Shown: positions 14,314 through 52,309, counted from the stretch's first letter. The stretch is 64,000 nt of DNA from an uncultured Ignavibacteriaceae bacterium (GCA_964362905.1 CAYIHQ010000002.1:46076-110075); one strand, 5' to 3'. A program made the numbers and translations. The notes: generated by a model from the letters alone, not told the origin.

Positions 14314-14619
14314 TTACGATTCTGGGAGGCTATTTTTTTTTGCTGTAAACAGTAATTTTTCTGCCTTTGTCTCTTGCAACATTTCTACTAGTTGCTTAAC
14401 TTTTGCCCACAACCTGGGGTCATATTCTTCCCAATGGCCTTTATATTCTAACCAACCAATATCATATATAGTTAGTTTATGAAATGTAGCAGCTTCAGTA
14501 GCAGTAATATCTTGTACTTCATATTCAATTTTGCTTAGATATGCTCCATACTGATGGTCATAAGCATATTGTATATGATAATCAAATAACTCTTTAAAAG
14601 TATTATAAGTATAAGTCAT
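14314..14619 (-). CDS. hypothetical protein (101 aa)
   Basis: ORF in the minus-strand operon, overlaps the upstream gene by 4 nt. Confidence 0.4.
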   Translation of the reverse strand: MTYTYNTFKELFDYHIQYAYDHQYGAYLSKIEYEVQDITATEAATFHKLTIYDIGWLEYKGHWEEYDPRLWAKVKQLVEMLQETKAEKLLFTAKKNSLPES

Positions 14620-14927
14620 TTGTTGAAAAGTACCTTAGCAGCATCTTTATCTAATTTAACAAGATTAACTTTATCGCCTGCATCTCTATATCTACAAAAG
14701 AGATTAAAGGCATCTATACCACTAGTAACAGTCTTTTCTCCAGTAGTTGTATTTTCAATAAGAATATTATCTGTCTGGAGAGTAATAAGATACTCTATAA
14801 TTCGGCCTATTATTGGTATTGTCATACTATCGGAAGTACCGCAAGTATTTGAGGAAATAGTCACTGTTGTTGCAGTATTGGTATAGCCAGTATAAATACC
14901 TGTATTAACAGTATAAGTATCACTCAT
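14616..14927 (-). CDS. small protein with C-terminal ...AAKVLFNK (LYG-tail family)
   Basis: C-terminal motif shared with more than 20 other ORFs in this window. Confidence 0.45.
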   Translation of the reverse strand: MSDTYTVNTGIYTGYTNTATTVTISSNTCGTSDSMTIPIIGRIIEYLITLQTDNILIENTTTGEKTVTSGIDAFNLFCRYRDAGDKVNLVKLDKDAAKVLFNK

Positions 14928-14953
14928 TCGTAACTCCTATTCAGATAATAGTA

Positions 14954-15337
14954 TTATTTCTTCACATATAGTACTTTAGCTGCTTCAGTCATGGCTACAA
15001 TTTCTCTAAAAGAGATCTTTTTAATACCATGATTACAGGTAATGATATTATATTTAATATCTTCTAAATCATCTTCAGTAGTACCAAACTCAATAGATTT
15101 AATAAGAATATTACCAAATTCTATGTGAACAGCAACATCTCCCTCTTTAAAGGGTAGATTATCCCATATACTTTTAACTTCTTCTAGTCTTTTAATACGC
15201 TCATTAAGTTTATCTCGTTTATCTACGCAGTCTTGGATGCGTTGTTCTATACCAATAGTTTTATTATAGAATATTTCATTTGCCACTTGCCGCACCACCC
15301 TTTGAACTCTATGAACCTTAACTGCCCTACTTGCCAT
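14954..15337 (-). CDS. small protein with C-terminal ...AAKVLYVKK (LYG-tail family)
   Basis: C-terminal motif. Coiled-coil-like N-terminal half. Confidence 0.45.
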   Translation of the reverse strand: MASRAVKVHRVQRVVRQVANEIFYNKTIGIEQRIQDCVDKRDKLNERIKRLEEVKSIWDNLPFKEGDVAVHIEFGNILIKSIEFGTTEDDLEDIKYNIITCNHGIKKISFREIVAMTEAAKVLYVKK

Positions 15338-15569
15338 GTAGCATTACCATTGCTTTATTCCAACCGTAGAACTCAAATTCCTCATCTAACTGCTCTGTAG
15401 TATAATCTGAAGTTAAACCATTATCGTGACTTCTACATTGCAAATAACCAGTCCAAGGCATCTTGTGGCCCAACACAGTAATAAGGCCACCATGAATCCT
15501 AGAACGCAGTACAACTCCAATAGGATAGACTACATAAGTCTTACTCCTTTCCATATAATAGTGTTCCAT
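15327..15569 (-). CDS. small hypothetical protein (ends ...AMVMLHGK)
   Basis: Operon ORF with a weak version of the tail motif. Confidence 0.35.
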   Translation of the reverse strand: MEHYYMERSKTYVVYPIGVVLRSRIHGGLITVLGHKMPWTGYLQCRSHDNGLTSDYTTEQLDEEFEFYGWNKAMVMLHGK

Positions 15570-15861
15570 GAGGTAAGTAGTAAGTTAACTCGCTACTTCT
15601 ATGTTGATTGCAATGAGCACCCTTATCCCAATAATAGGAATTACCTTTAGTGTAATAACCACTACTAGCTAATACTGTGCTATAGTAACCTACATCTATA
15701 TCAGTATTAGTATTACTGTCATAGTTAACCATTATCTCAGTTATTTGTAATATTGCATATTTGTCTTTATTAAACCTATTTCTAAATAGAAGTACATCTC
15801 CAATTTTCAGAACCGTATCTTCTTTAAGGAGTCTTTTTTTCATCCAGTTCCTCCAATTCAT
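15541..15861 (-). CDS. small protein ending ...GTLLYGKE (LYG-tail family)
   Basis: C-terminal motif. Confidence 0.4.
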   Translation of the reverse strand: MNWRNWMKKRLLKEDTVLKIGDVLLFRNRFNKDKYAILQITEIMVNYDSNTNTDIDVGYYSTVLASSGYYTKGNSYYWDKGAHCNQHRSSELTYYLPHGTLLYGKE

Positions 15862-16123
15862 AGATAGAGTTTTCAGTCTTTAGGATAAGCTTTCGTGGAT
15901 TTACTTTATCTATTTTGATATTTTTAACCCAAGAAGTAGAAATAAGATCACTTAAACTATCTGTTACAATACAGCGTTGACCTAACTTAACAGGATTACT
16001 TATTAATGTGCCGATAACTTTCTGTCCTTCTACAACAAAGACAGAATATTCAATAGCTTTAACTTTAGTTAGTTTGTAAATACTATCTTCAGGTAGTTCA
16101 AAACTAATAATTTTTTGTCTCAT
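15824..16123 (-). CDS. hypothetical protein (99 aa)
   Basis: Operon ORF. Confidence 0.4.
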   Translation of the reverse strand: MRQKIISFELPEDSIYKLTKVKAIEYSVFVVEGQKVIGTLISNPVKLGQRCIVTDSLSDLISTSWVKNIKIDKVNPRKLILKTENSIYELEELDEKKTP

Positions 16124-16231
16124 AGTATTTCTTTCATTAATTTATTTGGGGTCTATAAATGCTAATAACAATATTAACATGACCAACAATACGCCAAATC
16201 CTTGTACAATTGTAATAAGAAAATCTTCCAT

Positions 16232-16882
16232 TCAAGTCCACCATTTTCTAGAATATTTCGCAATATACTTACCTAAGAGGTCTAGGTCCTGTTTTTTTTG
16301 ATAGTCTTCATGTTTCCACATTCTTTTGCGATCTTTAATATAATCTTTTCTTTGCTCCTTATTCATAGCTTCTTCTCTAGTACAAATCATAGTGCTATGT
16401 GGGCCACCAGGTTTATCTTCAGTATTTGGAATTTTGACAAATTTAATTTCAGATTTTCCATATTTCCTATCCATATAGGAGTGTTGCCAAGCATCATACT
16501 CTTCTTTTTGAATACGGTCAAATAAAGAAATTACTGCTTTAAGTTTTCTAGCTTCTTTGCGAGTGAAGATATGATTGCCTTTTACGTAACAACCCTTATA
16601 CAAATCCTCATATAACTTTTTATTAAATAGTAAAACAAATCCATGGTCCCAATTACGATGTTGCCATACTAAGGGGGCATATTCAATAAGTCTAGCGCAG
16701 TTATTAAAGAAAGTACAGATAGCATAGTAGCTATTAAAGGCCCAATCAAACATATCACAAGTATACAGAGTCATATAAATTCTATCGACAAGCGACTTAT
16801 CTTTATATAAATCCCAAGTGCCTATACTTTCATATATACTATTTTTTAAACCTTTAATTAAACTTCTACCACACTTACTCAT
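16232..16882 (-). CDS. hypothetical protein (~216 aa; start moved to the ATG with a GAGGA RBS)
   Basis: Track start at 16930 overlaps the upstream ORF. The internal ATG at 16882 is preceded by GAGGAATAAT and directly follows the stop of 16884..17093. Confidence 0.45.
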   Translation of the reverse strand: MSKCGRSLIKGLKNSIYESIGTWDLYKDKSLVDRIYMTLYTCDMFDWAFNSYYAICTFFNNCARLIEYAPLVWQHRNWDHGFVLLFNKKLYEDLYKGCYVKGNHIFTRKEARKLKAVISLFDRIQKEEYDAWQHSYMDRKYGKSEIKFVKIPNTEDKPGGPHSTMICTREEAMNKEQRKDYIKDRKRMWKHEDYQKKQDLDLLGKYIAKYSRKWWT

Positions 16883-16883
16883 A

Positions 16884-17093
16884 TTATTCCTCGGTCTCAA
16901 TAGGTACTTTATGTGGAGTAGTTGGATCAAGATAGATTATATCTCCATCAAATATCATTTCAATCCAATTATCGTCTATGTTATTAAATTGATGTTTAAG
17001 CATAAAATTAGCAGTAAACTTCATAGCCTCAAATTTAGAATAGAAAGAGCGTAACTTTGAATTACAACTTTCTACATATCTTACATAATACAT
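16884..17093 (-). CDS. hypothetical protein (69 aa)
   Basis: Operon ORF, translationally coupled to the downstream gene. Confidence 0.35.
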   Translation of the reverse strand: MYYVRYVESCNSKLRSFYSKFEAMKFTANFMLKHQFNNIDDNWIEMIFDGDIIYLDPTTPHKVPIETEE

Positions 17094-17107
17094 ATCTAAC
17101 TCCTTAT

Positions 17108-18157
17108 TTATTTTTCGTTTGTATAAGTCCCGTTCTCTTTAGTAGTATTGTTGCTAATTTTTATAAAAGTTGCTTTCTCTTGGAATTCTTTTAAATTAGA
17201 AGCTCCTACATAAGTGAAAGCTGACCTCAAACCACCTTCAATATCGCTAAGAACTTCTTTAGCCGAACCTTTTAGGGGTACTGTAGTACTGATACCTTCA
17301 GCAGTTCGCCATTCTGCTACCTTACCCTGCTCCCCATAAGAAACTAAGCTTGCAGAGCCCTTGTAGAGCTTTACAGGGCATACTTTTTCGCCCTCTGGAT
17401 AAATAATTTCTCCAGGAGTTTCAGTAGTACCAGCTAACATTCCCCCAATCATTACAGCACTTGCTCCAGCGGCTAAAGCCTTAGCAATATCCCCAGCATG
17501 TCTTATTCCCCCATCAGCCACTATAGGAAATCCTGCAGAAGCGCAGTCAATAATAGCATATAATTGAGGCACTCCTACTCCAGTTTTTAGACGAGTAGTA
17601 CATACTCCTGAAGGACCTAGCCCAACCTTAAAAGCATCAGGAAATAACTTAGTATCATTTAGTTCTAAGCAAAAATGTTTAATTGATTCTCCAGTAGCAA
17701 AATTACCTGCTATAATCTCAATATTATTTTTATACTTTTCTCGTAAAAATCTAACTTGCTCTACTACGGCTAATTGTGCCCCATGAGCAACATCAATAAA
17801 TACAATCTCAGCTCCACTATCAATAAGAGCTATTGCTCTTTCTTTTTCTCCATTAGTAATACCTACAGAAACTGCAACATTAGGAGTATGTTTGAGTACT
17901 TCTTTTAGGGCCTTAACATTTTCTTCTATAGAGCAGAATCTATGAAGAACTCCCATTCCTCCAGATTTAGCCATAGTAATAGCCATATCAACTCCAGTAA
18001 TAGTATCCATATTTGAACTAATTACTGGAAGATTCAAGTCCATACCTGATATATATACATCTTTACGACTTCTGATATTTGTATAGTTAGGAAGCAATAA
18101 CACATCGTCAAAAGTTAAATATTCGCTAGTTTTTATTCTCATTTTGCTATTCCTCAT
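17108..18157 (-). CDS. guaC: GMP reductase (IMPDH/GMPR family, no CBS insert)
   Basis: About 349 aa. Motifs [19 protein letters not shown], [17 protein letters not shown] and TFIKI align closely to GuaC. Confidence 0.85.
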
Positions 18158-18596
18158 AATCTGATAGAATTATTCCATGTAAATGATCTATTTCATGTTG
18201 TACTACAACTGCAGATAGGCCATTTAATTCTCGTATGACAATTTCATTATAAATATTCAAATACTTTACCTTGATTTTTTTAAATCGCTCTACTTTAATC
18301 TCTTTGCCTGGCAGACTTAAGCAACCTTCAATAGAATCACACGCATTTTCTCCATGTAGGATCTCTGGATTAAACATAATAGCAGTACTACCATTCTTTT
18401 CAACTAAAGAAGTATCATAAACTAATAATTGAACTTTTCTACCTACTTGAGGTGCTGATAAGCCAATACCATTAGCCAATATCATAGTTTGGCACATATC
18501 TGATGCTAATTTAACTAGTTCTGGAGTTACCTTCTTTACGGCCTCGCAAGGCTCACGCAAAATAGGGTTTCCCTCAAGGACTATTTTTAATTGCAT
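18147..18596 (-). CDS. def: peptide deformylase
   Basis: Three PDF motifs: GIGLSAPQVG, EGCLSLPG, HEIDHLHG. Confidence 0.85.
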   Translation of the reverse strand: MQLKIVLEGNPILREPCEAVKKVTPELVKLASDMCQTMILANGIGLSAPQVGRKVQLLVYDTSLVEKNGSTAIMFNPEILHGENACDSIEGCLSLPGKEIKVERFKKIKVKYLNIYNEIVIRELNGLSAVVVQHEIDHLHGIILSDYEE

Positions 18597-18795
18597 TTTT
18601 ACTGACCTTTGTAGTTTTAATATATTCCAATAAAGTACTTAGCTCATTTATTCTAGCTTCATTCTCAAAATAAACATGCATAATATCTACATCATCACTT
18701 TTAGTATTTTGTATTTCAACTAGTTGTTCATTTAGAGTTAATAGTTGATTTAATCGATATTCTATTGCTCTTATTGCTGCTTCAATTGTTTTCAT
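18574..18795 (-). CDS. hypothetical coiled-coil protein (73 aa)
   Basis: Operon ORF. Confidence 0.35.
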   Translation of the reverse strand: MKTIEAAIRAIEYRLNQLLTLNEQLVEIQNTKSDDVDIMHVYFENEARINELSTLLEYIKTTKVSKNAIKNSP

Positions 18796-19036
18796 GCTGT
18801 CCTATCATGTTTTTAACTCTAGCTAGAACTTTTTCAGGTTCTGCATAGAATTCATCTTCCCAGTCAACATTATGTAAATGTGCTGATGCTTGCTCTAATG
18901 GTCTTGTGTGTTTAACAAAACCATAGGAACTTAGAATCTGACTAAATCTAAGATCTGGATTCTGAGCTACTATTTTTGTTAGAATTTCTAGTAGTTCTAT
19001 GTTTTTTAATTGCCTTTGGCCCATATTAATTCCCAT
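18782..19036 (-). CDS. hypothetical protein (84 aa)
   Basis: Operon ORF. Confidence 0.35.
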   Translation of the reverse strand: MGINMGQRQLKNIELLEILTKIVAQNPDLRFSQILSSYGFVKHTRPLEQASAHLHNVDWEDEFYAEPEKVLARVKNMIGQHENN

Positions 19037-19400
19037 TCAATGTATTGCAGGTAGCTAATATGCTTAGCTGATCTTGCTCACTGAATTGTGATAAGTCTGC
19101 ATTTGGGGCACAGTAGGTGTCCATAAAAGTATTTGCTTGAATAGGGTTTATATTCACTATGTCAAGGTTATTGAATGTGCAATCTGCTATTGCCTTTTTC
19201 CAAAGTTCTAAAGTTTCATAATCTTGTTGTAGCAATTTATCTTGACAAAGTTGTCTAATTTGTTCAATAAATTCTAATCTAACTATTACATAATTATGAG
19301 ATTCTCCAGAAGATACTATCTTTTGATCTTCTGTTTTAGTTTTTAGGGTGCTATTGCAACCTACAACCAAGAATAATATTGCCGTCAACAAATATTTCAT
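19026..19400 (-). CDS. putative lipoprotein
   Basis: N-terminal MKYLLTAILFLVVGCNS is a signal peptide with a lipobox Cys. Confidence 0.5.
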   Translation of the reverse strand: MKYLLTAILFLVVGCNSTLKTKTEDQKIVSSGESHNYVIVRLEFIEQIRQLCQDKLLQQDYETLELWKKAIADCTFNNLDIVNINPIQANTFMDTYCAPNADLSQFSEQDQLSILATCNTLNGN

Positions 19401-19432
19401 TATTGTTATCCTCTAAACTTCCAGTTAAGTTT

Positions 19433-19648
19433 TTACTTTTCCCGACTTTCATTCATTAGCATAGAGTCGTAGACTTGTGCGCACACAGTCTTTTCTTCTA
19501 CAATTTCCCAACCTTCGGAAGTAATAGTGTGCTTGCGTTCTCCACGCATAATCTCATTAGTATACTGTTTGTTACGAGTCTTCGTAACTATTTTGAAAGG
19601 CTTTTCTCCAGGTTTAGAAACTTTACCGGACACTTGACAAATAAACAT
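19433..19648 (-). CDS. hypothetical basic protein (71 aa)
   Basis: ORF only. Confidence 0.3.
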   Translation of the reverse strand: MFICQVSGKVSKPGEKPFKIVTKTRNKQYTNEIMRGERKHTITSEGWEIVEEKTVCAQVYDSMLMNESREK

Positions 19649-19757
19649 CTTTATTCCCCTTTATATACTTTATGTACTAAATCCAAAATCACAATTATCA
19701 GTATTGTTACTGATATAACAATAATGCTATAAAATACTGCTTCTGACCATGCCATAA

Positions 19758-20186
19758 TTACTCCTTAATCAATTCGTTTAGATTCCAAATTTCTGATTTC
19801 TTAAATATTTCTTCCACAGGTTTTTGTGGCATTAATTTGCGTTTCTTAATGCACCATGCTGCTGGTCCTAATTTATTATCCTTTTTCCACATTTCGTATA
19901 ATTCAGAAATTTCATTATGAGTTATACTTTCGGCATCTGCGGAGCCCCAGACAAAGATATCATTACAATTTACATGAAGAGTAATGAAATCTTTAGGCCA
20001 CTCCTTACCCTCTTCTTTATACCACCAACCATTATTACAGAAAATAACATCTTCTAAAATAAGATGAGCTAATTTATACTCTATTTCATCATAATCAGAT
20101 TGGAGAGTGGCTTGACAAATATCAACAGATATTTTCTTATCCCATAAAGAATTGTCTTTCTGATAGCTTTTCTCTTCTTCGTTCAT
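19758..20186 (-). CDS. hypothetical protein (142 aa)
   Basis: Operon ORF, overlaps the dNMP kinase gene by 4 nt. Confidence 0.4.
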   Translation of the reverse strand: MNEEEKSYQKDNSLWDKKISVDICQATLQSDYDEIEYKLAHLILEDVIFCNNGWWYKEEGKEWPKDFITLHVNCNDIFVWGSADAESITHNEISELYEMWKKDNKLGPAAWCIKKRKLMPQKPVEEIFKKSEIWNLNELIKE

Positions 20187-20887: not shown

Positions 20888-21126
20888 TAGTAATTCCTCT
20901 CTAGCATTTCGGCTATTTTATCGCAATCTGGAGGTATTTCCTTATTATATAGATGTTTAATAGTTTTAATGCTGCCCACAGAACAACTCTGAGCAGCTAT
21001 AAAAATTGTTTTTTCTTTAATTTTAATACCTTCAGTGTATGAAATAAAGGCAATAGTGGAAAGTATTCCAAATAGGAAACCATATATAAAAAATTCTATT
21101 TTAGTTGAACTGATATTAAATTTCAT
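20887..21126 (-). CDS. small membrane protein (79 aa)
   Basis: One hydrophobic TM segment. Confidence 0.35.
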   Translation of the reverse strand: MKFNISSTKIEFFIYGFLFGILSTIAFISYTEGIKIKEKTIFIAAQSCSVGSIKTIKHLYNKEIPPDCDKIAEMLERNY

Positions 21127-21202
21127 TTAATTTCCTATACAAACAAATTTACTGGCGGGCCCTCGTATCATAAAAATTAATAGATATCTCACAACAATCA
21201 TA

Positions 21203-21400
21203 CTATTCCTCTATTCCAATATACAATAATTTATAGCCCAGTTCCGCTATACTAGGCGCTTTTGAAGATAATTCTTTTCCAGTTTCCTTTTCAAAAAGAT
21301 CACTTAGACTTTCCTTAATAAAACCATTTTCATCAGGAATTTGATAAATACTTTTAATTCTACCATCAGGAAAAATTATATCATATCTATATTTTTTCAT
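21203..21400 (-). CDS. small hypothetical protein (65 aa)
   Basis: ORF. Ends ...YKLLYIGIEE, a weak tail motif. Confidence 0.3.
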   Translation of the reverse strand: MKKYRYDIIFPDGRIKSIYQIPDENGFIKESLSDLFEKETGKELSSKAPSIAELGYKLLYIGIEE

Positions 21401-21618
21401 CTAGTCTCCTTACAGAAAATAACTTTGGTAGGTTTATCTCCTCTAAGTTTATGTAATTGTATGATACTGTTAATAAAATTTTCACATCCCCAGGCATTAC
21501 CAAAAGATGCTATAAAATCACAGCCATCTCTATTACAACTCATGGCTTTATAGTAAATTTCGGGTTCAGCTCCTGCACAACCTACTATAAATAATAGACT
21601 AATTAAAAGATATTTCAT
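21397..21618 (-). CDS. putative lipoprotein (73 aa)
   Basis: MKYLLISLLFIVGCAGA is a signal peptide with a lipobox. Confidence 0.45.
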   Translation of the reverse strand: MKYLLISLLFIVGCAGAEPEIYYKAMSCNRDGCDFIASFGNAWGCENFINSIIQLHKLRGDKPTKVIFCKETR

Positions 21619-21887: not shown

Positions 21888-21905
21888 ATTTGCTCCTTGC
21901 TACCC

Positions 21906-21942
21906 ATAAATAAAAAAGGGTAACTTTTTACAGATTACCCTT
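21906..21942 (-). terminator. rho-independent terminator (minus strand)
   Basis: aagggtaa ... ttaccctt stem. On the minus strand it is followed by uuuuuuauuua. Confidence 0.45.
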
Positions 21943-21968
21943 TATTTGCCAACTTGTCAATTTATTTT

Positions 21969-24022: not shown

Positions 24023-24361
24023 TTATTTGTCTTGCGACTTCTTAAGACTGTACTCGAATTCTTCGTATTTGTCCAGAAGAGTTTCGTGGATTGTATCTAC
24101 TAAAACTGCAAATGATGTACGCTCAGAACGCACTCCATCATTAAAACCAGATTCGTACACCGTATTTGGCTTTAGGTTATTAGCAGGAATTGGCTTCATC
24201 TCAGCTTTGAGATTCTCTAAAAAGTAATTAGATAAAAGAATTATATCCTTCATCCAAACTAACTTTCTCTCTGCAGAAATATAATCCCAGTTAGCTTTTA
24301 CGCCAGATTTAGCAGCATATCTGTTAAATATTTCTCTAGCCATTCCTTCTAATGTTTTCAT
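24023..24361 (-). CDS. hypothetical protein (112 aa)
   Basis: Operon ORF. Confidence 0.4.
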   Translation of the reverse strand: MKTLEGMAREIFNRYAAKSGVKANWDYISAERKLVWMKDIILLSNYFLENLKAEMKPIPANNLKPNTVYESGFNDGVRSERTSFAVLVDTIHETLLDKYEEFEYSLKKSQDK

Positions 24362-24639
24362 TTTAATTTACCACATCTATTCCATAAGTCGTCTATTTGT
24401 TTTTTAGTCACTTTATTTACTAATTGTTTTTTGAAAGCATCCATAGAATAAAGAATTCCGAAATGACAATCTATTACAGAATTTCTTTTAAGTTGTTCCG
24501 ACATGTCAGGACATTCATGTTCATTTTTTGAACAGCCTAGTAAAAACAAAAATAAAATAATTAAATATCGTATGGTATTAATGATTCCTCCAAAAGTCTT
24601 CAATGTCATCAGGATTTTTATTCTTTTCTGTAGAAGCAA
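24358..24639 (-). CDS. outer-membrane lipoprotein, o-spanin (Rz1)-like
   Basis: LFLFLLGCS lipobox. Small Cys-containing protein whose gene overlaps the 3' end of the i-spanin-like gene. Confidence 0.4.
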   Translation of the reverse strand: MLLQKRIKILMTLKTFGGIINTIRYLIILFLFLLGCSKNEHECPDMSEQLKRNSVIDCHFGILYSMDAFKKQLVNKVTKKQIDDLWNRCGKLK

Positions 24640-24913
24640 TTTCTTTTCGTTTGGCTTCTAAATCCAATAGTCCATTTTGTAGCTCTAATACTTCTTTGGC
24701 TAGCACTTCTTTACGATCCATGCGTTCTTTGATTTGAGCTTCAATCAAATCTGCCTCTTTTTGAGTTTTAACTAAATCTATTTGGCCTTTTAGTGCATTA
24801 ACTTCTTTGCGTCTATTACTTAATACATAAATTAATATAGCTATTCCACCAGTTAAAACTAACATAATAATTCCATAAAGACTACTAAAAAATTCTTTAA
24901 TTTTCGCCAACAT
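24578..24913 (-). CDS. i-spanin (Rz)-like: N-terminal TM plus periplasmic coiled coil
   Basis: TM segment LYGIIMLVLTGGIAILIYVL, then a charged coiled coil. Overlaps the lipoprotein gene. Confidence 0.45.
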   Translation of the reverse strand: MLAKIKEFFSSLYGIIMLVLTGGIAILIYVLSNRRKEVNALKGQIDLVKTQKEADLIEAQIKERMDRKEVLAKEVLELQNGLLDLEAKRKEIASTEKNKNPDDIEDFWRNH

Positions 24914-25550
24914 TCGAAATCTCCCAAATATTCGATTTATTTCTAATTTGTTTCAAAAGTTCTACTATCTTAAACATTTCTTCGCCAGTTATAAATTCAT
25001 TTTTAAGTCTATTACAATTAATACAACAAGGAACTACATTACCTACAATATAACCTTTATTGTTATCTACTCTATCCAAACTTAAACAAGTATCAGAAAT
25101 ATTATTTCCGCAAGCGTAATAACAATTTTTATTTTCTATAATTTTAGAGTATTCTTCAAAAGTCAATAAAAATTCTATATTCCTCTTTTTAGCTTCCCAT
25201 TTTCCATAATAATACTTACCTGAAGTGGAGTTTCTATGTTTTTTAGAAGACTTCAGCAAAATATCTCTACCTTTATCGGATTTTCTATATAATCTCTGTC
25301 TATGTTTAGAACAAAGATTATTTCCTCCACCTTTTTCATTACAAAATCTGTCGCAATTTTCCGCAGAACATTTTTTAGGTTCTTTTTTACTTCTTTTTAA
25401 TTTTAGAAAATTTAATTTGTATCCTACTGCTTCGTATGTTCTATTTATTTTTTCTGAAATTTCTTTATTCGATAGTTCTTCATAATTAGCTACTAAAAAA
25501 TCTATCTCTGTTTTTGACCAATGTTTATTTTTCGTCATCAGAATTCTCAA
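24897..25550 (-). CDS. HNH homing endonuclease
   Basis: LSLDRVDNNKGY...CCINCNRLK HNH motif. C-terminal module paralogous to 32836..33453. Confidence 0.7.
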   Translation of the reverse strand: MRILMTKNKHWSKTEIDFLVANYEELSNKEISEKINRTYEAVGYKLNFLKLKRSKKEPKKCSAENCDRFCNEKGGGNNLCSKHRQRLYRKSDKGRDILLKSSKKHRNSTSGKYYYGKWEAKKRNIEFLLTFEEYSKIIENKNCYYACGNNISDTCLSLDRVDNNKGYIVGNVVPCCINCNRLKNEFITGEEMFKIVELLKQIRNKSNIWEISNVGEN

Positions 25551-31398: not shown

Positions 31399-31749
31399 TC
31401 AATATTTCTTTTTACTTTTTTCATATAATATTTTAGCTCCTTTGGATTCAAAGGGAGTTAAACTAAGTTCTTTTATGCCTATCGTCCCCTCTACTTCCAT
31501 AGTTTTGGAATGGCTATTTTTTCTAATATGATATTTTATTAATTTTTGTAAAGCTTTATGTGTAGGAGCATCTAAGAATTCTATATTGCATGGCTCATCA
31601 ACTTTTTTATTTTTTGGCGCTCTCCAAAGACCATCGACAAGATCAGTACCAAAATAGTCTACTGATACTTTTATGCCAGTATCTTTTATGTAAAGATGCT
31701 CCCCTTTACAAATAGCTGCTATAATTTTATCTCTAGTACGCCAGTTCAT
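31399..31749 (-). CDS. small protein with ...GAKILYEKSKKKY tail (LYG-tail family)
   Basis: C-terminal motif. Confidence 0.4.
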   Translation of the reverse strand: MNWRTRDKIIAAICKGEHLYIKDTGIKVSVDYFGTDLVDGLWRAPKNKKVDEPCNIEFLDAPTHKALQKLIKYHIRKNSHSKTMEVEGTIGIKELSLTPFESKGAKILYEKSKKKY

Positions 31750-32835: not shown

Positions 32836-33453
32836 TTAGTCCCATATATTATCTTTATTTCTAAGTTTTTTTAAAAGTTCTATTATTTCTAAAGTTTCTT
32901 TTGGAGTTAAATAATTACCTTTCAAATTATTGCAATTCCAACAACAAGAAACTGAATTTTCTTCTGTATAGCCTAAATCGGAATTTAATCTATCTAAACT
33001 ATAACCCCCATTATTAAGTTTGCCTTTACAATAATAACAAATATCTTTAGTCATTTGTTCAATAAACCATTTTTTAGTTATTGTCCAGAGCATTCCTTTT
33101 TTCTTGGCGTGGCTTTTGCCACAAGTATATCTTCCTGATATTGATTTTCTTAATGTATTTTTTGTTATTTTTAATTTAGCTTTTCTAATTTTGGTATAAC
33201 GATTTTTATCATAATTTTTGTCTTGTTTATTAATTCTGTACCATTTGGAATAATGAGCATTGCATAAAGGAATACTGTCATCAGTTCTACCTTTAATTCT
33301 TTTATTGCAATTAATCGCTGAGCATTTTTGTACTGATTCGTCAAAATAACCCTGTAGTAATAATTTATTATAGCAAGATGTGCAATATCCTCGGCATTTT
33401 GAAATTTTTCCGCATTTACAAGGTTCGGTATTTATTATTTTATTTTTAGGCAT
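32836..33453 (-). CDS. HNH homing endonuclease (paralog of 24897..25550)
   Basis: YSLDRLNSDLGY...CCWNCNNLK. Shared C-terminal LKKLRNKDNIWD versus LKQIRNKSNIWE. Confidence 0.7.
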   Translation of the reverse strand: MPKNKIINTEPCKCGKISKCRGYCTSCYNKLLLQGYFDESVQKCSAINCNKRIKGRTDDSIPLCNAHYSKWYRINKQDKNYDKNRYTKIRKAKLKITKNTLRKSISGRYTCGKSHAKKKGMLWTITKKWFIEQMTKDICYYCKGKLNNGGYSLDRLNSDLGYTEENSVSCCWNCNNLKGNYLTPKETLEIIELLKKLRNKDNIWD

Positions 33454-35783: not shown

Positions 35784-36386
35784 TTATACGATTTCGTCAA
35801 TAAGCCCTAAATTTAAAGCCTCTTCGGGAGTTAAAATTGTATCAAAACGAAGCATACTTTTTATTTTAGCTTTAGTAAAATCTGGATGTTTAATTTTAAT
35901 TTTTTCTAAGAGTATATTTTCAAATATTTCTTCGTCTCTAGCAAATTGTTCTACTAGGCGTTTATTTATTTCTGGATGATTATAACCTAAAGTATAATGG
36001 CCCGTATGTATCATTAAACGACTATTTTTAGTCATTACTCTACGATCCGCTGCTTGAAGAATCCAAGCAGCTATAGACATACCATATCCTTGAATCATAA
36101 CGGTAACATGATTTTTGCATAGTTTAATAGCGTCATAACAAGACATGCCATATAAAGAATCTCCCCCAGGACTATTTAAGATTATCGTAATGGCATTGTC
36201 TCCTGCTGGAGCGGATTTATCTAGTACATGTAATCCTTTTATTAGTTTTTCGCACATTAAAGAATCTACACCACTTTCATTACCATCTAAATCAGATTCT
36301 ATAGAACTTGCGTATATTGTTCTAGTATCTACATTTATTCCGTAATCAAAAAATCTATCCAGAGAATCTTTATTGATTCTTGCCAT
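35784..36386 (-). CDS. ClpP-family serine protease
   Basis: ILNSPGGDS, GMSIAAW (Ser region) and SRLMIHTGH (His) align to ClpP. Confidence 0.75.
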   Translation of the reverse strand: MARINKDSLDRFFDYGINVDTRTIYASSIESDLDGNESGVDSLMCEKLIKGLHVLDKSAPAGDNAITIILNSPGGDSLYGMSCYDAIKLCKNHVTVMIQGYGMSIAAWILQAADRRVMTKNSRLMIHTGHYTLGYNHPEINKRLVEQFARDEEIFENILLEKIKIKHPDFTKAKIKSMLRFDTILTPEEALNLGLIDEIV

Positions 36387-44878: not shown

Positions 44879-44930
44879 ATTTTATCTCCTTTTTAATCAT
44901 ATTAATGGCTTTTAAAGCTAAAAGCAAGTT

Positions 44931-46743: not shown

Positions 46744-47055
46744 TTACAATCCTTGATTCTTCATATACTTTTGATATATATAATGGCAAGTAAGTTTAAG
46801 CGATTCTGAATGACCATTTTCCTTAAGATATTTACATAAAGTAATAAATCTTGTAGCTTCTTCTTTATCTAGTTGATCGTATATAAATTTAACTCGCAGT
46901 ACATCAAATTGTTCTAACATAGTTACATAATGTCCTCGTTCCTTAAGTCGTTTAATACGACCCTCATCTATATTAGTAACATTATCAATTTCTTGAGATT
47001 CTAGAAACTCATCTTGTACTACTGGTAAAATTTCGTTTTTAATATCCTTAGACAT
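46744..47055 (-). CDS. hypothetical protein (103 aa)
   Basis: Operon ORF. Confidence 0.35.
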   Translation of the reverse strand: MSKDIKNEILPVVQDEFLESQEIDNVTNIDEGRIKRLKERGHYVTMLEQFDVLRVKFIYDQLDKEEATRFITLCKYLKENGHSESLKLTCHYIYQKYMKNQGL

Positions 47056-47056
47056 A

Positions 47057-47290
47057 CTACTTTTGTATTTCCTCTAATAAATTAGACAGTGTAGAAATAG
47101 CACTTTTATGTTCAACTAATGTCATAGTGTGCTTCATAAGCATTGATTTAGCGTCATTATCCAATACTGAATTTTTCTTTTTCATAATGCTAAGTTCTTC
47201 TACAATTTTAGCTATTTCTTTTTTGTGTACTGCTATTTTGCTATTTAAAGTAGCTAATATTTCAGGTAATGTTTTCATGTTTTTCTCCAT
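47057..47290 (-). CDS. hypothetical coiled-coil protein (77 aa)
   Basis: ORF. Confidence 0.3.
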   Translation of the reverse strand: MEKNMKTLPEILATLNSKIAVHKKEIAKIVEELSIMKKKNSVLDNDAKSMLMKHTMTLVEHKSAISTLSNLLEEIQK

Positions 47291-47552
47291 ATAAAATCTC
47301 AGCTTGCTTAGTAAGTTCCATCACTACTTTAGTATTAATAGTGGATCTAGTAACAGGCATATTTAAAGTTATAGGATTATCCATAAATTGACCGCTGGCC
47401 AGTTCAGTAGTCATGCTATCATACTTATCTTCATATATAAATAAGAATCGGTATCCTTCTTTATAAAATTGATTCATTGTATAAGGGTCAACTACTATAT
47501 ACTTATCTTTAATCATAGAAATAGGACCTCTAGTGCCTGATTGTCGGGCCAA
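47262..47552 (-). CDS. small protein ending ...QAEILYGEKHENIT (LYG-tail family)
   Basis: C-terminal motif. Confidence 0.35.
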   Translation of the reverse strand: MARQSGTRGPISMIKDKYIVVDPYTMNQFYKEGYRFLFIYEDKYDSMTTELASGQFMDNPITLNMPVTRSTINTKVVMELTKQAEILYGEKHENIT

Positions 47553-48037
47553 TTAATTTTGCAAATCTCACATATAAGCTTTATGTATCTTCTGTCTGTA
47601 TCGACAGAATGTGTTACGCTTTCTATTTGCAGTAATGTATGAAATGCTATGTCAGAAGAATTATCAATAGCATCAACTAGTATTCTTTTTCGTAAGTTAA
47701 AAAACTCGTTATTGTTCATAGAATAATTTTCATTCTTAGCAGTTTCGTCTAATTCTAGCATATAGTCTTTCATGATTTTACTATCTCCAGATACAGAATA
47801 GGCATCTAAAACTGATTTAAACTTAATCATGGCAGAACTATAAGCACTATATTTACTTTTACAAAACTTATGAGCTACATAAACTACCCTATTTTTAACG
47901 CTCATGCAATTTAAAGCTACTCCCAAAGCGGAAGTATATTGTCGTGATCTAAATTGAGATAGAACCTCGCCTATACCGTTAGTAGGTAATTTCTTCTTAG
48001 AAATCCTGTTTCTAAATACTTGCTTAATATTGCTCAT
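47513..48037 (-). CDS. hypothetical protein (174 aa)
   Basis: Operon ORF. Confidence 0.35.
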   Translation of the reverse strand: MSNIKQVFRNRISKKKLPTNGIGEVLSQFRSRQYTSALGVALNCMSVKNRVVYVAHKFCKSKYSAYSSAMIKFKSVLDAYSVSGDSKIMKDYMLELDETAKNENYSMNNNEFFNLRKRILVDAIDNSSDIAFHTLLQIESVTHSVDTDRRYIKLICEICKINWPDNQALEVLFL

Positions 48038-48903
48038 TTAAACATACCTGGCACATTATAGATAATTTTTCCGCCTTGTTTTTTTACGAATATTGTCCAT
48101 TTGATATTATACCTTTTAATGACTCTTGTCAAGATTTGTTGTACAGCTTGCTTACTTATTTCTTCTATATTGGCTATATGCGCAAAATTAAAATTTGTTT
48201 GATATATCATAATTAGTATGCATCTTTGTTTATGAGTCAATTCGTCGCCGTGGTCTTTTATGAAGCTTCTCATTATAGCAAATTCACTTAATTTGGTTAA
48301 AGCTGAATAGAATTCATACTTTACTCTAGCTTGATTATTTAGGTCTAACTCTTTTGCTATGGTTAGAAAGTCTTTACTCTCATAAAGATATTTTTTAACT
48401 ACAGATTGCCTGATGTCTGATAGGCAGTCCCAAGGTACTTCTATATTATTTAAGGCAGTTGGTCTTACAGAATTATCAGTTACATATTGTTCAGCATGAT
48501 TTTCTAATGTATCTTGTAGAATCAAATCTGGTTCTTTATTTGACCCCCTATTCAAAAAATCATTGACTTGATAACAAGGGCTATTACAGATCTTAGCTAT
48601 GGAACATATATTGCAATTAGCTAGGAATAGCTCGTCATTTTGAATATTGTGTGTAATCTTGAGCTGTTCTAAATAGGGCTTTGCAGTTTTTGATAGCCAA
48701 GGTAATGGCCTACCAACACATGAGGTGGTTAAGCAAACTTTTCTTTTTGGGCACTCATCTATAGAATAACCATAAGCTTCTATAGTTTCTTGCCTAATTA
48801 TGCGCATAATATTATCTCTAATGTCTCTATGAATTAGATTATGCCATGGAGCCATAGTACAGGCAGGAAACTTATAAGTTCTTTTAAATGTCTTTTCGTC
48901 CAT
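48034..48903 (-). CDS. Cys-rich protein with C-terminal HTH-like segment (possible transcription regulator)
   Basis: Several Cys pairs in the N-terminal half. EISKQAVQQILTRVIKRY is helix-turn-helix-like. Confidence 0.3.
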   Translation of the reverse strand: MDEKTFKRTYKFPACTMAPWHNLIHRDIRDNIMRIIRQETIEAYGYSIDECPKRKVCLTTSCVGRPLPWLSKTAKPYLEQLKITHNIQNDELFLANCNICSIAKICNSPCYQVNDFLNRGSNKEPDLILQDTLENHAEQYVTDNSVRPTALNNIEVPWDCLSDIRQSVVKKYLYESKDFLTIAKELDLNNQARVKYEFYSALTKLSEFAIMRSFIKDHGDELTHKQRCILIMIYQTNFNFAHIANIEEISKQAVQQILTRVIKRYNIKWTIFVKKQGGKIIYNVPGMFK

Positions 48904-49330
48904 TTATCTCTTCCTGCAATTTCTTGGCAATTCCCATCCATTTTAAGGTGGATTGTCTTTCTTGAGTTAATTCTTCTCTTAGTCGATTGATGTCTAGTTT
49001 TGCGCAATATTCGAACCATTCAAGTGGGGGTTCTTGTGACTTTAGGTATCTATCAATCTCCTCATCAGTAGTACATCCCATCTCTTTGCTCTTGGCTACT
49101 CTAAAATATTTTTTAGCCATGGGATGATTGCTTCTATCTTTATTCAAACTCCAAGCTTCGATGATCCATTCATATTTACCGCCACGATTTTCATGTTCTT
49201 CTTCCGCTGATTTCTTAGCTTTATCCAAATTATCAAATACTCCTACGGTATAATGATGACCTTCTTCTGAACCCCATCTATTCATAACGACTACATATAC
49301 GAAGTTATAAAGTATTTTCTTAGCGTCCAT
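48884..49330 (-). CDS. hypothetical protein (148 aa)
   Basis: Operon ORF. Confidence 0.35.
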   Translation of the reverse strand: MDAKKILYNFVYVVVMNRWGSEEGHHYTVGVFDNLDKAKKSAEEEHENRGGKYEWIIEAWSLNKDRSNHPMAKKYFRVAKSKEMGCTTDEEIDRYLKSQEPPLEWFEYCAKLDINRLREELTQERQSTLKWMGIAKKLQEEINGRKDI

Positions 49331-49589
49331 ACAGAAGTTTTCCTATTTTAGTTTTTTTAATTAATCTATCTTTTTTGCGGCGTTCTAATTCTAAGTATAA
49401 AAATGGTAATATTCTTTTAGATGTTCTAGACTTAACATGTTCAATAATTTTTTTTATGTGTCTGGGTCTTAAGTTGCATATTGGTATAGTTTGTCCGTCT
49501 AAAGTAGTCCAAATTTCTCCATAGCTGTATTGTATCTCTGGATCAGCTAAAAGTCTTTTAGGATACTGTTTATACTTTTTCACAAACAT
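49320..49589 (-). CDS. small basic protein ending ...KIGKLLYGR (LYG-tail family)
   Basis: C-terminal motif. Confidence 0.35.
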   Translation of the reverse strand: MFVKKYKQYPKRLLADPEIQYSYGEIWTTLDGQTIPICNLRPRHIKKIIEHVKSRTSKRILPFLYLELERRKKDRLIKKTKIGKLLYGR

Positions 49590-50122
49590 CCCTTATACAA
49601 TATATCAAAAACTTCAGCTTTTATGTTATTTTCTTTTAAAATCAGCTTTATTAAATAGTTTTTATATTCTTGTTGTTTGGCTGCAATAGGAGCATTGGTG
49701 GCACGGGCGGAGGAGGAGTCACGGGCGGTGGAGATGGCGGCATAGTCAGTAGCATGGGCGGCAGACAAGGCGACGGTGGAGGTAGTGGTATTGACGACTG
49801 CATAGGCGGCATATGCTGTGGCATAGGCGACGGAGGAGTCACGGGCGGTTATGGAGGGGACACTGGCGGTGGCATGGGCTGCATTGGCGGCCGTCCTAAT
49901 ATCTTTTTTAGAAACTTCCTTACCCAAAAGTAAGTCTCCCAAAATTTTCAACACTTTATTTTGCTTAATATAAATTTCTTTATATTTTGCATGATCATAA
50001 TTGGCCCTAGTATCTTTTACTACAAATATAAGAAACTTATACAAAATATTTTTATTGTCGTATTCTGCCAAAATAGTTTTTATGTCAGAACTCATAAGAC
50101 TTCTAAGATTTAACTTTTTCAC
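49580..50122 (-). CDS. Ala/Tyr-repeat protein, paralog A
   Basis: Conserved N- and C-terminal modules flank a low-complexity A/Y/S/T/H core. Ends ...FDILYKGCL. Confidence 0.5.
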   Translation of the reverse strand: MKKLNLRSLMSSDIKTILAEYDNKNILYKFLIFVVKDTRANYDHAKYKEIYIKQNKVLKILGDLLLGKEVSKKDIRTAANAAHATASVPSITARDSSVAYATAYAAYAVVNTTTSTVALSAAHATDYAAISTARDSSSARATNAPIAAKQQEYKNYLIKLILKENNIKAEVFDILYKGCL

Positions 50123-50592
50123 ATATACCTCATAACTAACTGTTCATATTTTTTACGCTTAATTTTATGTGAAGTGTTATACCTACTCCAATAATTTGGC
50201 TCTTTATAGTTTTTCTTCAAATCTTTTAGAATTTGGGCAGTACAATTTATTGAATAATCAAGATCAATAAGTAATCTGTTCTTATCAAAATTATAATATT
50301 TAATAGTTTTGATATTTATTTGTCCTATAGAATAGTCATTGCTTTTGCTCAAAACATTCAATTTATATGACGATTCTTGCATTAACATAGCTGTCAGTAT
50401 TTTTGAATCAATCTTGTGAACTTTGTGTATTTTATCAATTAAACTAGATAGTTTCACGGCATAGTTTTTATCAATAGTGGGATTATTCTTAATAATTTGA
50501 TGAAAAATAGGACTTGCCTGGGGTGATGTTGTTTTAGCGAATACTTTAATGGATAGTATTAATAACATGCTGATTATTATATTTTTTTTCAT
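50119..50592 (-). CDS. lytic transglycosylase (SLT domain) with signal peptide
   Basis: Signal peptide MKKNIIISMLLILSIKVFA. LMQESSYKLN and YSIGQINIK are SLT catalytic-region motifs. Confidence 0.6.
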   Translation of the reverse strand: MKKNIIISMLLILSIKVFAKTTSPQASPIFHQIIKNNPTIDKNYAVKLSSLIDKIHKVHKIDSKILTAMLMQESSYKLNVLSKSNDYSIGQINIKTIKYYNFDKNRLLIDLDYSINCTAQILKDLKKNYKEPNYWSRYNTSHKIKRKKYEQLVMRYM

Positions 50593-51059
50593 ATGATCTT
50601 ATTTCCATATAGTATTGAGAATGCTTTGCAGTCAATTTTGTTATCCTCTAATACTAGCTTGATTAAATATTGTTTGTATTCTTGTTGTTTGGCGACATGG
50701 GCGGCAATGGTGGCGGCAATGGTGGCGGCATGGGAAGCGGAGTGGGCGGCATAGGCGGCGGAATTGGCGGCATGGGAAGCGGAGGTGGCATGGGCGGCGG
50801 CAAAGGCGGCGACAAAGGCGGCCTCAATATCTTTTTTGAGAACCACCTTACCCAAAAGCAAGTCTCCTAAGATTTCCAACACTTTATTTTGCTTAGCGTA
50901 AATTTTTTTATATTTACTGTGGGCATAATTGAGCATAGTATCTTTTACTACAAATATGAGAAATCTATATAAAATAGACTTTGAATAATATTTTTGTAAT
51001 ATACTTTTAATATCAGAATTAATTAAAGTTTTAATATTCAAAGTTTTCATTAATAACAA
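50589..51059 (-). CDS. Ala/Tyr-repeat protein, paralog B
   Basis: Same flanking modules as A. Core AAFVAAFAAAHATSASHAANSAAYAAHSASHAATIAATIAAHVA. Ends ...FSILYGNKII. Confidence 0.5.
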   Translation of the reverse strand: MLLMKTLNIKTLINSDIKSILQKYYSKSILYRFLIFVVKDTMLNYAHSKYKKIYAKQNKVLEILGDLLLGKVVLKKDIEAAFVAAFAAAHATSASHAANSAAYAAHSASHAATIAATIAAHVAKQQEYKQYLIKLVLEDNKIDCKAFSILYGNKII

Positions 51060-51649
51060 TCCTCTGGAAATCTAAGTAAGGTTATCTTAACAGTTTTAGC
51101 TCCATCTCTATATTCTTCGAATATACCGCCTCTATGAGAGAATAGTTCTTTTTCGCCGAATATTTCCTCTTCTGTTAATTTTCTTCCGAGTTTCTTTTCT
51201 ATTCGTTTAACTTGAGAAGTATCAGGTATAATAACTGAACAACTAGCTATAGGTAGAAATATTTTATTAGTAAAGCCACATCCAAAAATATCGTCAGGAT
51301 ATTTTTTGCTATATGCCCATCTATCGTATAATTCCATAAACATTGAATCAAAAGATATGTTCTTTAGATACTCCCATTGCTTTTCTTTGGGTAGTAAATC
51401 ATATTGATAAAATTCTTTTTCCCAAATAATGAGCCTATTTCCAGAACACTTCTGTAATCCGCTATCATCTAAAGTAAGTTTTGATAAACAATTAGGACAA
51501 AAAATAAAATTACTTCGAGTATTGTTTATTACTTTTTTATCTTTAGTTTTAAACTTCTGTACTATGACCTTTTGGCCACTTACTTCAGTTTCATATTCAG
51601 CTATTATGTCTTTGTTCTTTTTCTTCATCTTTTTGTAGAACCTTTCCAT
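51050..51649 (-). CDS. hypothetical protein with zinc-ribbon (CPNC ... CSGN)
   Basis: Four-Cys pattern. Confidence 0.4.
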   Translation of the reverse strand: MERFYKKMKKKNKDIIAEYETEVSGQKVIVQKFKTKDKKVINNTRSNFIFCPNCLSKLTLDDSGLQKCSGNRLIIWEKEFYQYDLLPKEKQWEYLKNISFDSMFMELYDRWAYSKKYPDDIFGCGFTNKIFLPIASCSVIIPDTSQVKRIEKKLGRKLTEEEIFGEKELFSHRGGIFEEYRDGAKTVKITLLRFPEDCY

Positions 51650-51806
51650 CTTGGATTACATAACCATTTTTGTTACAAAACCCGATGAAGCTTTCTATTA
51701 CTGCAATAACAATACCATTATCGTCTTTTCCATAATTCACCCAGTGGTTAATAGAATCAGATTTAATTTCAGAATATTGTTTATTACTAAGTTTAATTTC
51801 TTTCAT
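51597..51806 (-). CDS. small hypothetical protein (69 aa)
   Basis: ORF. Confidence 0.3.
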   Translation of the reverse strand: MKEIKLSNKQYSEIKSDSINHWVNYGKDDNGIVIAVIESFIGFCNKNGYVIQDGKVLQKDEEKEQRHNS

Positions 51807-52309
51807 ATATATAACATACCATAAGTTTTAGTATTAATTCCATTTTCTTCTAATACTAGCTTTATTAAATAGTTTTTATATTCTTGTTGTTTGGCTGCAT
51901 AGGCGGCATCGGCGGCATAGGCGGCGGCATAGACGGCATTGGCGGCATAGACGGCGGCATAGACGGCATCGGCGGCATAGACGGCGGCATAGACGGCATT
52001 GGCGGCATAGACGGCGGCATAGACGGCATTGGCGGCGGTGGTGGCGGCATAGGCGGCGGCATTGGGGGCATTGGCGGCTGTCCTAATATCTTTGCTAGAA
52101 ACTTCCTTACCCAAAAGTAAGTCTCCCAAAATTTTCAACACTTTATTTTGGGAATCATAAACTTCGCTATGGTTTTTACAGTCATAAGTGGCCCTAGTAT
52201 CTTTTACTACAAATATAAGAAATCTATACAAAATAGACTTTGAATAATGTTGCTCTAGAATATTTCCTATACCAGAATTTTGCATTTGTTTTAAATCTAT
52301 TTTTGACAT
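51803..52309 (-). CDS. Ala/Tyr-repeat protein, paralog C
   Basis: Core AVYAAVYAANAVYAAVYAADAVYAAVYAANAVYAAAYAADAAYAA. Flanks near-identical to A at the DNA level. Confidence 0.5.
   Translation of the reverse strand: MSKIDLKQMQNSGIGNILEQHYSKSILYRFLIFVVKDTRATYDCKNHSEVYDSQNKVLKILGDLLLGKEVSSKDIRTAANAPNAAAYAATTAANAVYAAVYAANAVYAAVYAADAVYAAVYAANAVYAAAYAADAAYAAKQQEYKNYLIKLVLEENGINTKTYGMLYI
51895..52075. repeat. 15/30-nt tandem repeat (ggcggcatagacggc / attggcggcatagac) coding for (AVYAAVYAA[N/D])n
   Basis: Read directly. Similar but degenerate tracts at about 49685..49900 and 50690..50830. Confidence 0.8.

Follow-up and report, generated by a model that had tools for sequence, protein, structure and literature searches.

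Introduction

In bacteriophage T4, the unrelated proteins gp43, gp55 and gp33 carry near-C-terminal tails of the type h-x-h-L-[FYL] (h, hydrophobic; x, any residue), which bind the gp45 clamp. Encapsulin cargo peptides and the helices of scaffolding proteins and HK97 proteases are C-terminal peptides of about ten residues that dock inside an HK97-fold shell. The tails of MinD and FtsA are portable C-terminal amphipathic helices with an L-F-G-G-like end and basic flanks, E. coli MinD ending in ...KGFLKRLFGG. SspB has a ClpX-binding tail ...ALRVVK and the Lon degron of SulA ends in ...NLYH. The T4 internal proteins are diverse small defence-countering proteins which have only a short capsid targeting sequence (CTS) in common (PMC3012670). 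In our study, a C-terminal tail motif, in its short form the 8-residue A-x-K-[VIL]-L-[YF]-G, is described from 64,000 nucleotides of DNA deposited under an uncultured Ignavibacteriaceae bacterium (GCA_964362905.1 CAYIHQ010000002.1:46076-110075). This whole stretch, called the window, belongs to the genome of an uncultured groundwater phage, about 113 kb long and with a GC (guanine and cytosine) content of 32%, and the tail occurs in it both on an array of small open reading frames (ORFs) and on ORFs dispersed outside the array. The kind of element, a common terminal targeting or docking peptide, is known; the sequence, the C-terminal position on phage accessory proteins and the scale are new.

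Results

The gene set consisted of 122 window genes, 94 of them outside the main array (55961..63666, minus strand), in which 15 small ORFs carry the tail and were used as training set and context only. The core [VILM]L[YF] was found within 12 residues of the C-terminus in 25 of the 122 genes, against 4.6 expected under a uniform distribution. Outside the array it was found in 12 of the 94 genes against 1.9 expected (Poisson p=8e-7), and the enrichment stays at p=3e-5 when three paralogous Ala/Tyr-repeat proteins are collapsed to one. A position-specific scoring matrix (PSSM) was then derived from the 15 array tails only, over positions -7 to +3 around the invariant Leu (position 0). Among the 17,822 non-array scoring windows the top six are all C-terminal, lying at most 8 residues from a C-terminus, and belong to 14954, 49320, 31399, 50589, 14616 and 47262 (genes are named by their first coordinate). 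With the h-L-[YF] core removed, the flanks of these six score 4.0-6.8, whereas none of the 26 internal [VILM]L[YF] occurrences exceeds 1.5 (Mann-Whitney p=1e-4). Six genes reach at least 11 bits, against a mean of 0.05 and a maximum of 1 in residue shuffles, and only one of 179 non-gene ORFs in other frames reaches at least 8 bits at its C-terminus, that one without the L-Y core. The motif exists, is not due to chance and is confined to C-termini. An earlier reading of this DNA, the initial annotation, had proposed that such position-specific scoring might reduce the dispersed tails to chance; six of them rank first instead, and all eight ORFs and tails which it quoted translate as it described.

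The anatomy of the motif was examined on 70 strong tails, selected by a filter that required L or I at position 0 and Y, F or W at +1, and carried by proteins of 65-259 residues (median 96). Their consensus is [DN]-[STP]-K-A-x-[KRQ]-[VIL]-L-[YF]-[GS]. D or N stands at -7, S, T or P at -6 and K at -5; position -4 is A in 28 of the 70 tails and otherwise V, I, T or M, -3 is A or variable, -2 is K (42 tails), R, Q or E, with K, R or Q in 57, and -1 is L, V or I. Position 0 is L in 70/70 and +1 is Y in 55, F in 14 and W in 1, the constancy of both being partly a product of the filter. G (36) or S (10) occupies +2 in 46/70, and K, N, D or R occupies +3. The residues after the aromatic number 1-25 (median 5) and are variable, mostly polar or basic, with Lys, Asn, Asp, Arg or Ser at most C-terminal ends, and the linker-like segment that precedes the motif is polar, with many Gly, Pro and Asp residues. 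The pattern reads as an N-cap (often S-P, N-P or T-K), two helical turns and a C-capping Gly. When 27 tails were aligned by codon on the Leu codon, the information was found at codon positions 1 and 2 and the third positions were near background, and the Leu(0) codons were mixed (TTA, TTG, CTT, CTA, CTG and CTC); both features indicate that the motif is selected as a peptide. TAT dominates in the tails because of the codon bias of the genome, in which it makes up 83% of Tyr codons. Selection acts on the amino acids of the tail.

The tails also occur in related phages. Contigs L009, L010, L011 and L013 were reached through orthologues of 57523, L013 being a short contig from a JGI (Joint Genome Institute) metagenome scan, which also gave L014, a spurious match. 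The GC content of L009-L011 is 28-31%, each related contig holds 9-13 strong tails per 12-20 kb, and the orthologous tail-bearing proteins are about 27-77% identical. Their synteny with the window extends over GP88, the array, an S8 subtilase, a MoxR-type AAA_5 ATPase, a DUF2201/VWA protein, SLT, a sigma-like gene and a metallophosphatase. Over 14 orthologue families the identity is 72% in the tail core (-4 to +1), 44.5% in the body and 38% in the post-motif extension, so the tail is more conserved than the bodies that carry it. Every one of the 11 orthologues of the isolated gene 31399, with identities as low as 52%, has preserved K-[GA]-A-[KR]-[ILV]-L-Y, and L009 and L010 retain the tails of 49320 and 47513. 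The most conserved array protein is 57523-57804, with 63-86% identity to the window copy among 12 sequences (P0010-P0022); after its tail this family has a second conserved stretch, G-x-K-x-G-x-[LI]-x4-I-P-D.

In the phage itself, contig L006 continues 10 kb past the window end at 64000 and adds 12 more strong tails on both strands (L006:1-9700), four of its genes (L006 8470-9477) being clear tail-bearing paralogues of the form LLLRCIKK...ITIGKLY...YKFEIV...AAKLLYG. The readable genome amounts to about 74 kb of the 113 kb (the window, L006 and L015). The motif is present on about one sixth of the window genes, on at least 20 small proteins (65-200 residues) in the window and on at least 32 in the 74 kb. 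None of the recognisable enzymes and structural proteins that were read (baseplate, fibre, polymerase, ribonucleotide reductase, ligase, helicase and others) has the tail. When 1.84 billion representatives were searched exhaustively by HMMER with the array profile, nothing beyond this clade was returned. The tail-bearing proteins gave no significant match in Pfam, PHROG, NCBIfam, PADLOC or PDB, only sub-threshold or low-complexity ones, together with phrog_18326 (unknown function), which matched the Ala-rich repeat of 51803 with E=2e-4. IMG/VR scans with the MoxR-like ATPase and the 57523 family gave no match, and a full-text literature search for 'LLYG' returned noise only.

The bearers in the window all lie on the minus strand, and several of the tails that had been regarded as dispersed form a second mini-array at 14314-15861. 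It includes the 103-residue ORF 14616..14927 (tail DKDAAKVLFNK, core 14622-14642; PSSM 12.0, flank-only 4.9) and the 127-residue ORF 14954..15337, whose N-terminal part is coiled-coil-like by eye and whose tail MTEAAKVLYVKK (core 14963-14983) is the top match outside the array (15.0). The 106-residue ORF 15541..15861 (HGTLLYGKE, core 15550-15570) scores 8.8 bits and ranks tenth among the non-array scoring windows. The small ORF 15327..15569 ends in the variant NKAMVMLHGK with His for Tyr, a weak match (3.2), and from its sequence is a probable degenerate member of the tail family. The 101-residue ORF 14314..14619, adjoining 14616-15861, has a weak tail, ETKAEKLLF plus 10 residues (6.2), which by score alone is indistinguishable from chance. 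In the replication/recombination module the 116-residue ORF 31399..31749 carries ESKGAKILYEKSKKKY (core 31420-31440). Further along lie the 96-residue ORF 47262..47552 (LTKQAEILYGEKHENIT, core 47286-47306), whose L010 orthologue has the weaker tail LSKACTALFGE, and the 174-residue ORF 47513..48037, just downstream of the sigma-like gene, with the weak tail DNQALEVLFL in the window copy and DNPAIKVLFGR (14.2) in its L009 orthologue. The 89-residue basic ORF 49320..49589 has the tail KTKIGKLLYGR (core 49326-49346), its orthologues in L009 and L010 ending in AGKILYGR.

The Ala/Tyr(His)-repeat protein 50589..51059 carries DCKAFSILYGNKII (core 50604-50624; PSSM 12.7), and its paralogues 49580..50122 and 51803..52309 have the degenerate tails EVFDILYKGCL (2.8) and KTYGMLYI (6.1). 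The listing of 49580 among the tails in the initial annotation is thus not borne out by score, although it is a paralogue of 50589 in a family where L-Y is invariant. In this trio the N- and C-terminal parts are conserved, and the length of the Ala-rich middle differs between samples, giving 139, 153 and 164 residues for one copy and 158 and 168 for another. No other phage yielded these proteins, and L009 and L010 lack them at the syntenic site; reading the repeats in other frames gives 'GGIGG' and 'PPMPP' ORFs, presumably artefacts of the repeats. Tails additional to those listed earlier are 47513..48037, 14314..14619, 15327..15569, 55961 and 55737. The last two (55961-56200 and 55737-55976) are variant-tail families, each conserved among its own orthologues: 55737 has T-[KR]-[VI]-L-[MIT]-x-x-[QD]-L-D-[ED] without an aromatic (TRVLM), and 55961 has E-[IL]-L-W with Trp (LEILW). 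The tail KLLYIGIEE of 21203, with a flank score of -7.3, is probably a chance occurrence. A size range of 73-199 residues had been given earlier for the dispersed bearers; these span 89-180 residues, and all strong window bearers have 75-199.

Repeated assemblies of the phage came from Hainich groundwater metagenomes (0.1-um fraction) and other runs. No DNA similarity to 50,697 deposited phage records was found, and its family-A DNA polymerase is nearest to that of a Flavobacterium phage, with 33% identity. Plus-strand genes from 379 to 13127 are of baseplate, fibre and lysis type, and minus-strand genes run from 64000 down to 13124, a long block which appears to be headed by a divergent intergenic region at about L006:5550-6120. 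AGGAG-like elements precede the genes, so initiation in the host is of the Shine-Dalgarno type. Scans for sigma-70 promoters in the array and in L006 gave counts not above those of shuffles.

A protein of 289 residues (48034..48903, minus strand) matches the Sigma70 region 4 domain at 24.2 bits against a Pfam cut-off of 24.1, and also UPF0122; judged from these matches it is likely a phage sigma-like factor. It lies between the tail-bearing genes 49320 and 47513 in an order conserved in L009 and L010, and it ends in GGKIIYNVPGMFK, which contains the tail-like K-I-I-Y-N. The S8 subtilase (56579-57316) is embedded in the array, and its N-terminus reads as a signal peptide by eye. It is followed by the MoxR-type AAA_5 ATPase (53855-54952) and the DUF2201/VWA protein (52324-53787); these positions are kept in L009 and L010, and L011, which ends earlier, has the subtilase only. 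A ClpP-family protease gene (35784-36386) is located between the DNA polymerase and exonuclease genes and not in a head module; its best NCBIfam match, 'head maturation protease, ClpP-related', is below the cut-off and about equal to true ClpP models. Two paralogous Cys-rich proteins (24897-25550 and 32836-33453; 38% identity over 165 residues) read as HNH/zinc-finger-like by eye and may represent homing-endonuclease-like genes inserted in the replication module. Lipoprotein-like N-termini, with an L-x-x-C lipobox after a hydrophobic stretch, were seen in the small proteins 19026-19400, 21397-21618 and 24358-24639. Inside the array there is a very AT-rich gap of 194 nucleotides (61596-61789) with many TATAAT-like boxes and a perfect 17-bp inverted repeat at 61619-61657 (AGTAATACAATCTATTT/AAATAGATTGTATTACT); the gap may act as a promoter inside the array, with an operator, or as a terminator.

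Discussion

The explanation we put first, holding it with confidence and doubt in about equal measure, is that the tail serves as an address or docking peptide common to its bearers, with an N-capped helix of two turns that would bind many small accessory proteins to one shared partner. The helix face formed by A(-4), h(-1), L(0) and Y(+1) would fit into a hydrophobic groove of this partner, and many fast-evolving accessory proteins would thereby be brought to the same place or machine. A constant, conserved hydrophobic face in an accessible C-terminal helix, recurring on many unrelated and fast-evolving proteins, is the signature expected of a docking motif. We infer the helix from the sequence pattern together with two low-confidence AlphaFold2 models, and likewise infer the binding to a common partner. 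In order of preference, the candidate partners would be a replication or transcription ring or hub protein, the inside of the procapsid (with packaging for co-injection), and an unfoldase or protease.

The ring or hub is put forward because of the analogy with the gp45-binding tails of T4, which are the closest precedent in register and logic, as a resemblance and not a membership. In T4, gp43 ends in ASLDFLFG, gp55 in DSPSLDFLYEAND and gp33 in TNTLDFLL, and the annotation notes of gp33 and gp45 link gp33 and gp55 to gp45. Both systems have a short near-C-terminal hydrophobic/aromatic peptide on unrelated proteins for one partner, in the register [ST]-(P)-x-h-polar-h-L-[FY]-[GE], as in DSPVAKVLYLD and YSPMAQVLYGN here, and the tail-bearing genes on both sides of the sigma-like gene 48034..48903 add to the likeness. 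They differ in that T4 has Asp at -2 and Phe at -1, whereas here -2 is Lys, Arg or Gln and -1 is Val, Leu or Ile; the T4-type consensus [ST]LDFL[FYL] does not describe the present tails, with their basic -2 and aliphatic -1. The bearers here are also some 30 or more small proteins of unknown function and not replication or transcription factors. Among 143 T4 proteins the highest C-terminal PSSM score, 5.0 bits only, belongs to the gp55 tail, and gp43 scores -1.5. The bacterial beta-clamp motif (QL[SD]LF or QLxLxL) was rejected as well: Gln occurs only at -2, in 7 of the 70 tails, and Q-h-L-Y is one residue shorter.

In biology, the closest precedent is the T4 internal-protein locus, where diverse small accessory or anti-defence proteins likewise have only a short terminal peptide conserved. 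The T4 CTS sits at the N-terminus, where the prohead protease cleaves it off, whereas the present motif is C-terminal and different in sequence, is found on far more genes and is known from genes alone. A CTS needs an N-terminal location and an L/I-x-E site, and the motif here is exclusively C-terminal. Encapsulin cargo, scaffold and HK97-protease peptides are similar as C-terminal peptides on unrelated proteins, but the encapsulin consensus is of the L-x-I-G-S-L-K type.

The most serious competitor is that the tail is a structural element, namely the last helix of an ancestral small domain, packed on its own core in deeply diverged paralogues, with the dispersed copies relocated or fused. We consider this unlikely, while granting it a real share of plausibility. 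Many array members have an N-terminal h-x-h-G-D and a strand-like h-x-h-x-Y before the tail, 14954 has GDVAV...ISFREIV in that place by eye, and the bearers cluster in arrays. Leave-one-out hidden Markov models (HMMs) of the tail-less array, which replaced a circular comparison of the array HMM with its own members, clearly recovered only 60838, 15541 (E=6e-4) and 57523, and hhalign of tail-less orthologue profiles joined 55961 and 60838 with 70% probability, every other pair staying below 20%. All-against-all BLAST of the bearers connected the Ala/Tyr trio only (about 50% identity) and no other pair, and the tail-less array HMM gave no match (E>3) to 14954, 31399, 47262, 14616, 49320, 58205 or the Ala/Tyr proteins. 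Most bodies are thus dissimilar even at the profile-profile level. On this sequence evidence a small 'IGD' body subfamily exists, 15541 included, and for most bearers the tail is the only common element.

Other features also speak against a helix packed on the protein's own core. The tail is present on proteins which appear alpha-helical or coiled-coil by eye (49320 and the C-terminal half of 58205), and the segment before the motif resembles a linker. L(0) and the aromatic at +1 are invariant (partly by the filter) where the cores have diverged, which is unexpected of a helix co-evolving with its core. The AlphaFold2 model of the 57523 family (predicted local distance difference test score, pLDDT, 56) has beta strands and a helix at 65-72 (PDVMKVLY), and that of the Ala/Tyr protein 50589 (pLDDT 50) is all-alpha, residues 141-148 (CKAFSILY) forming a short helix apart from the rest; low in confidence as they are, these models suggest that the structural class differs between tail families. 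Foldseek with the 57523-family model gave no match at E<=0.001. The statement of the initial annotation that the N-terminal parts are unrelated accordingly stands for most bodies by BLAST, HMM and hhalign, but fails for the paralogous Ala/Tyr trio and for 15541, a member of the array subfamily. Its preference for a portable tag over tandem paralogy is favoured by the unrelated bodies, by selection on the peptide and by the higher conservation of the tail than of the body, and is weakened in that the trio counts as one event and that the mini-array at 14314-15861 exists.

Several points weigh against a docking peptide. No clamp gene was seen in the 74 kb read, and the phage polymerase is of family A and does not have the tail. 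The array subset 55961, 60838, 15541, 57523 and perhaps 56181 has a common body, so part of the distribution is ordinary paralogy, and very deep paralogy may account for more in proteins that evolve this fast. Because both models have low pLDDT, they do not decide between a free helix and one packed on its own domain. Some of the Y-G conservation may also come from dual coding, discussed below, which concerns 22 of the 70 tails.

A stronger form of the docking proposal, speculative and rather improbable in our estimation, is a proteome-wide address system in which one C-terminal tag is carried by 30-40 small effectors for a single receptor and the tail codons also form the translation start of the next cassette. 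The effectors would be at least a fifth of the expected 150-190 or so genes, and the receptor would be either the procapsid interior, anti-host proteins being co-injected with the DNA, or a clamp-like hub. In a phage, such a system would correspond to encapsulin cargo tags or eukaryotic sorting signals.

A degron or protease-adaptor tag, read by a host AAA+ protease (ClpXP or Lon) or by the phage ClpP-like protein for timed turnover or tethering, is improbable, and would in any case be a special case of the docking model. It draws on the ClpP-family gene 35784..36386, with Ser and His in ClpP-like contexts by eye, and on a loose resemblance of the tail to the SspB tail and the SulA end. The ClpP-like protein, however, fits head-maturation protease models equally well, the DNA read shows no ClpX-like gene, and the 1-25 residues to the C-terminus with their polar or basic ends are unlike C-degrons of the ssrA type, which have a non-polar fixed end such as LAA-COOH. 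The degradation by ClpP, ClpXP or Tsp that the initial annotation had raised as a check does not agree with a classical C-degron for the same reason.

Targeting of the bearers to the inner membrane by an amphipathic helix, in the style of MinD or FtsA, is quite improbable. Position and pattern do resemble the end of MinD, with K at -2, L at 0, an aromatic at +1, G at +2 and basic residues after it. The mean hydrophobic moment of the tails is lower, 0.37 against 0.61-0.78 for the MinD and FtsA sequences, and does not fit a helix of that type. Positions -4 and -3 are mostly Ala, and two families (57523 and 59083) have long acidic post-motif extensions. The Leu-Tyr pair is much more strictly conserved than in MinD and FtsA, and an invariant Leu with a strict aromatic at +1 is not needed for lipid binding.

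The codons of the tail have a second use. In 8 of the 26 window tails, and in 22 of the 70 overall, the ATG within TAT-G(GN) is the start of the downstream gene. The window cases are 15541-15570, 47286-47306, 49326-49346, 56196-56216, 57586-57606, 61070-61090, 61296-61316 and 62307-62327. The TAT-GGA of the 15541 tail opens the gene 15327..15554 (MERSK...), that of 47262 opens 47057..47290 and that of 49320 opens 48884..49330. In 8/8 embedded starts AGG, GGA or GAG lies 5-10 nucleotides upstream of the ATG, and a codon with final G stands at -2 in 10 of 19 cases, compared with 23% genome-wide (p=0.005). K-V written as AAG-GTN yields the Shine-Dalgarno-like AAGGT, and Glu-Val codons yield a GAGGT-like version. 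The peptide could on these grounds be an incidental by-product at the RNA level, the tail codons being an initiation cassette (RRGGT, spacer, ATG in TAT-GGN) or a recombination junction. Against this, about 70% of the tails host no start codon, the Phe (TTT, TTC) and +2 Ser variants keep the motif without an ATG, and Leu(0), which would fall in the spacer, is more conserved than any other residue, its codons being of both the TTR and the CTN type. Little information is held by the third codon positions -7, -4, +2 and +11, and a cassette would have no use for A(-4) or the N-cap residues. As the main cause, an RNA-level by-product is largely refuted and highly improbable; because most tails lack a start, the Phe and Ser variants lack the ATG and the spacer Leu is invariant with mixed codons, dual coding is a real secondary layer and not the cause of the motif.

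The remaining candidates were set aside. Sortase and PEP-CTERM signals do not fit, as no hydrophobic stretch follows the motif and no N-terminal signal peptide is apparent on reading the translations. Exposure of a C-terminal Gly in the ubiquitin or Atg8 manner is inconsistent with Gly in only 36/70 tails. Cleavage by the array subtilase was rejected since that enzyme has a probable signal peptide by eye and the bearers apparently have none, and modification of the tyrosine is unlikely with Phe or Trp replacing Tyr in 15/70 tails. The motif belongs to no known family.

Conclusion

The tail makes compact use of coding sequence, as the codons of the motif can serve also as the ribosome-binding site and start of the next gene. 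If it is a docking tag, one peptide would open dozens of phage genes without assigned function to experiment at once, and the partner could be fished with a synthetic tail peptide (e.g. NTKATKVLYGRKSK). Foreign cargo could be routed by the same means, and bearers in metagenomes could be recognised by the tail despite their orphan bodies. Short linear motifs are, to our knowledge, rarely documented in bacteriophage, and a docking tag of this kind would be an unusually clear case of one.

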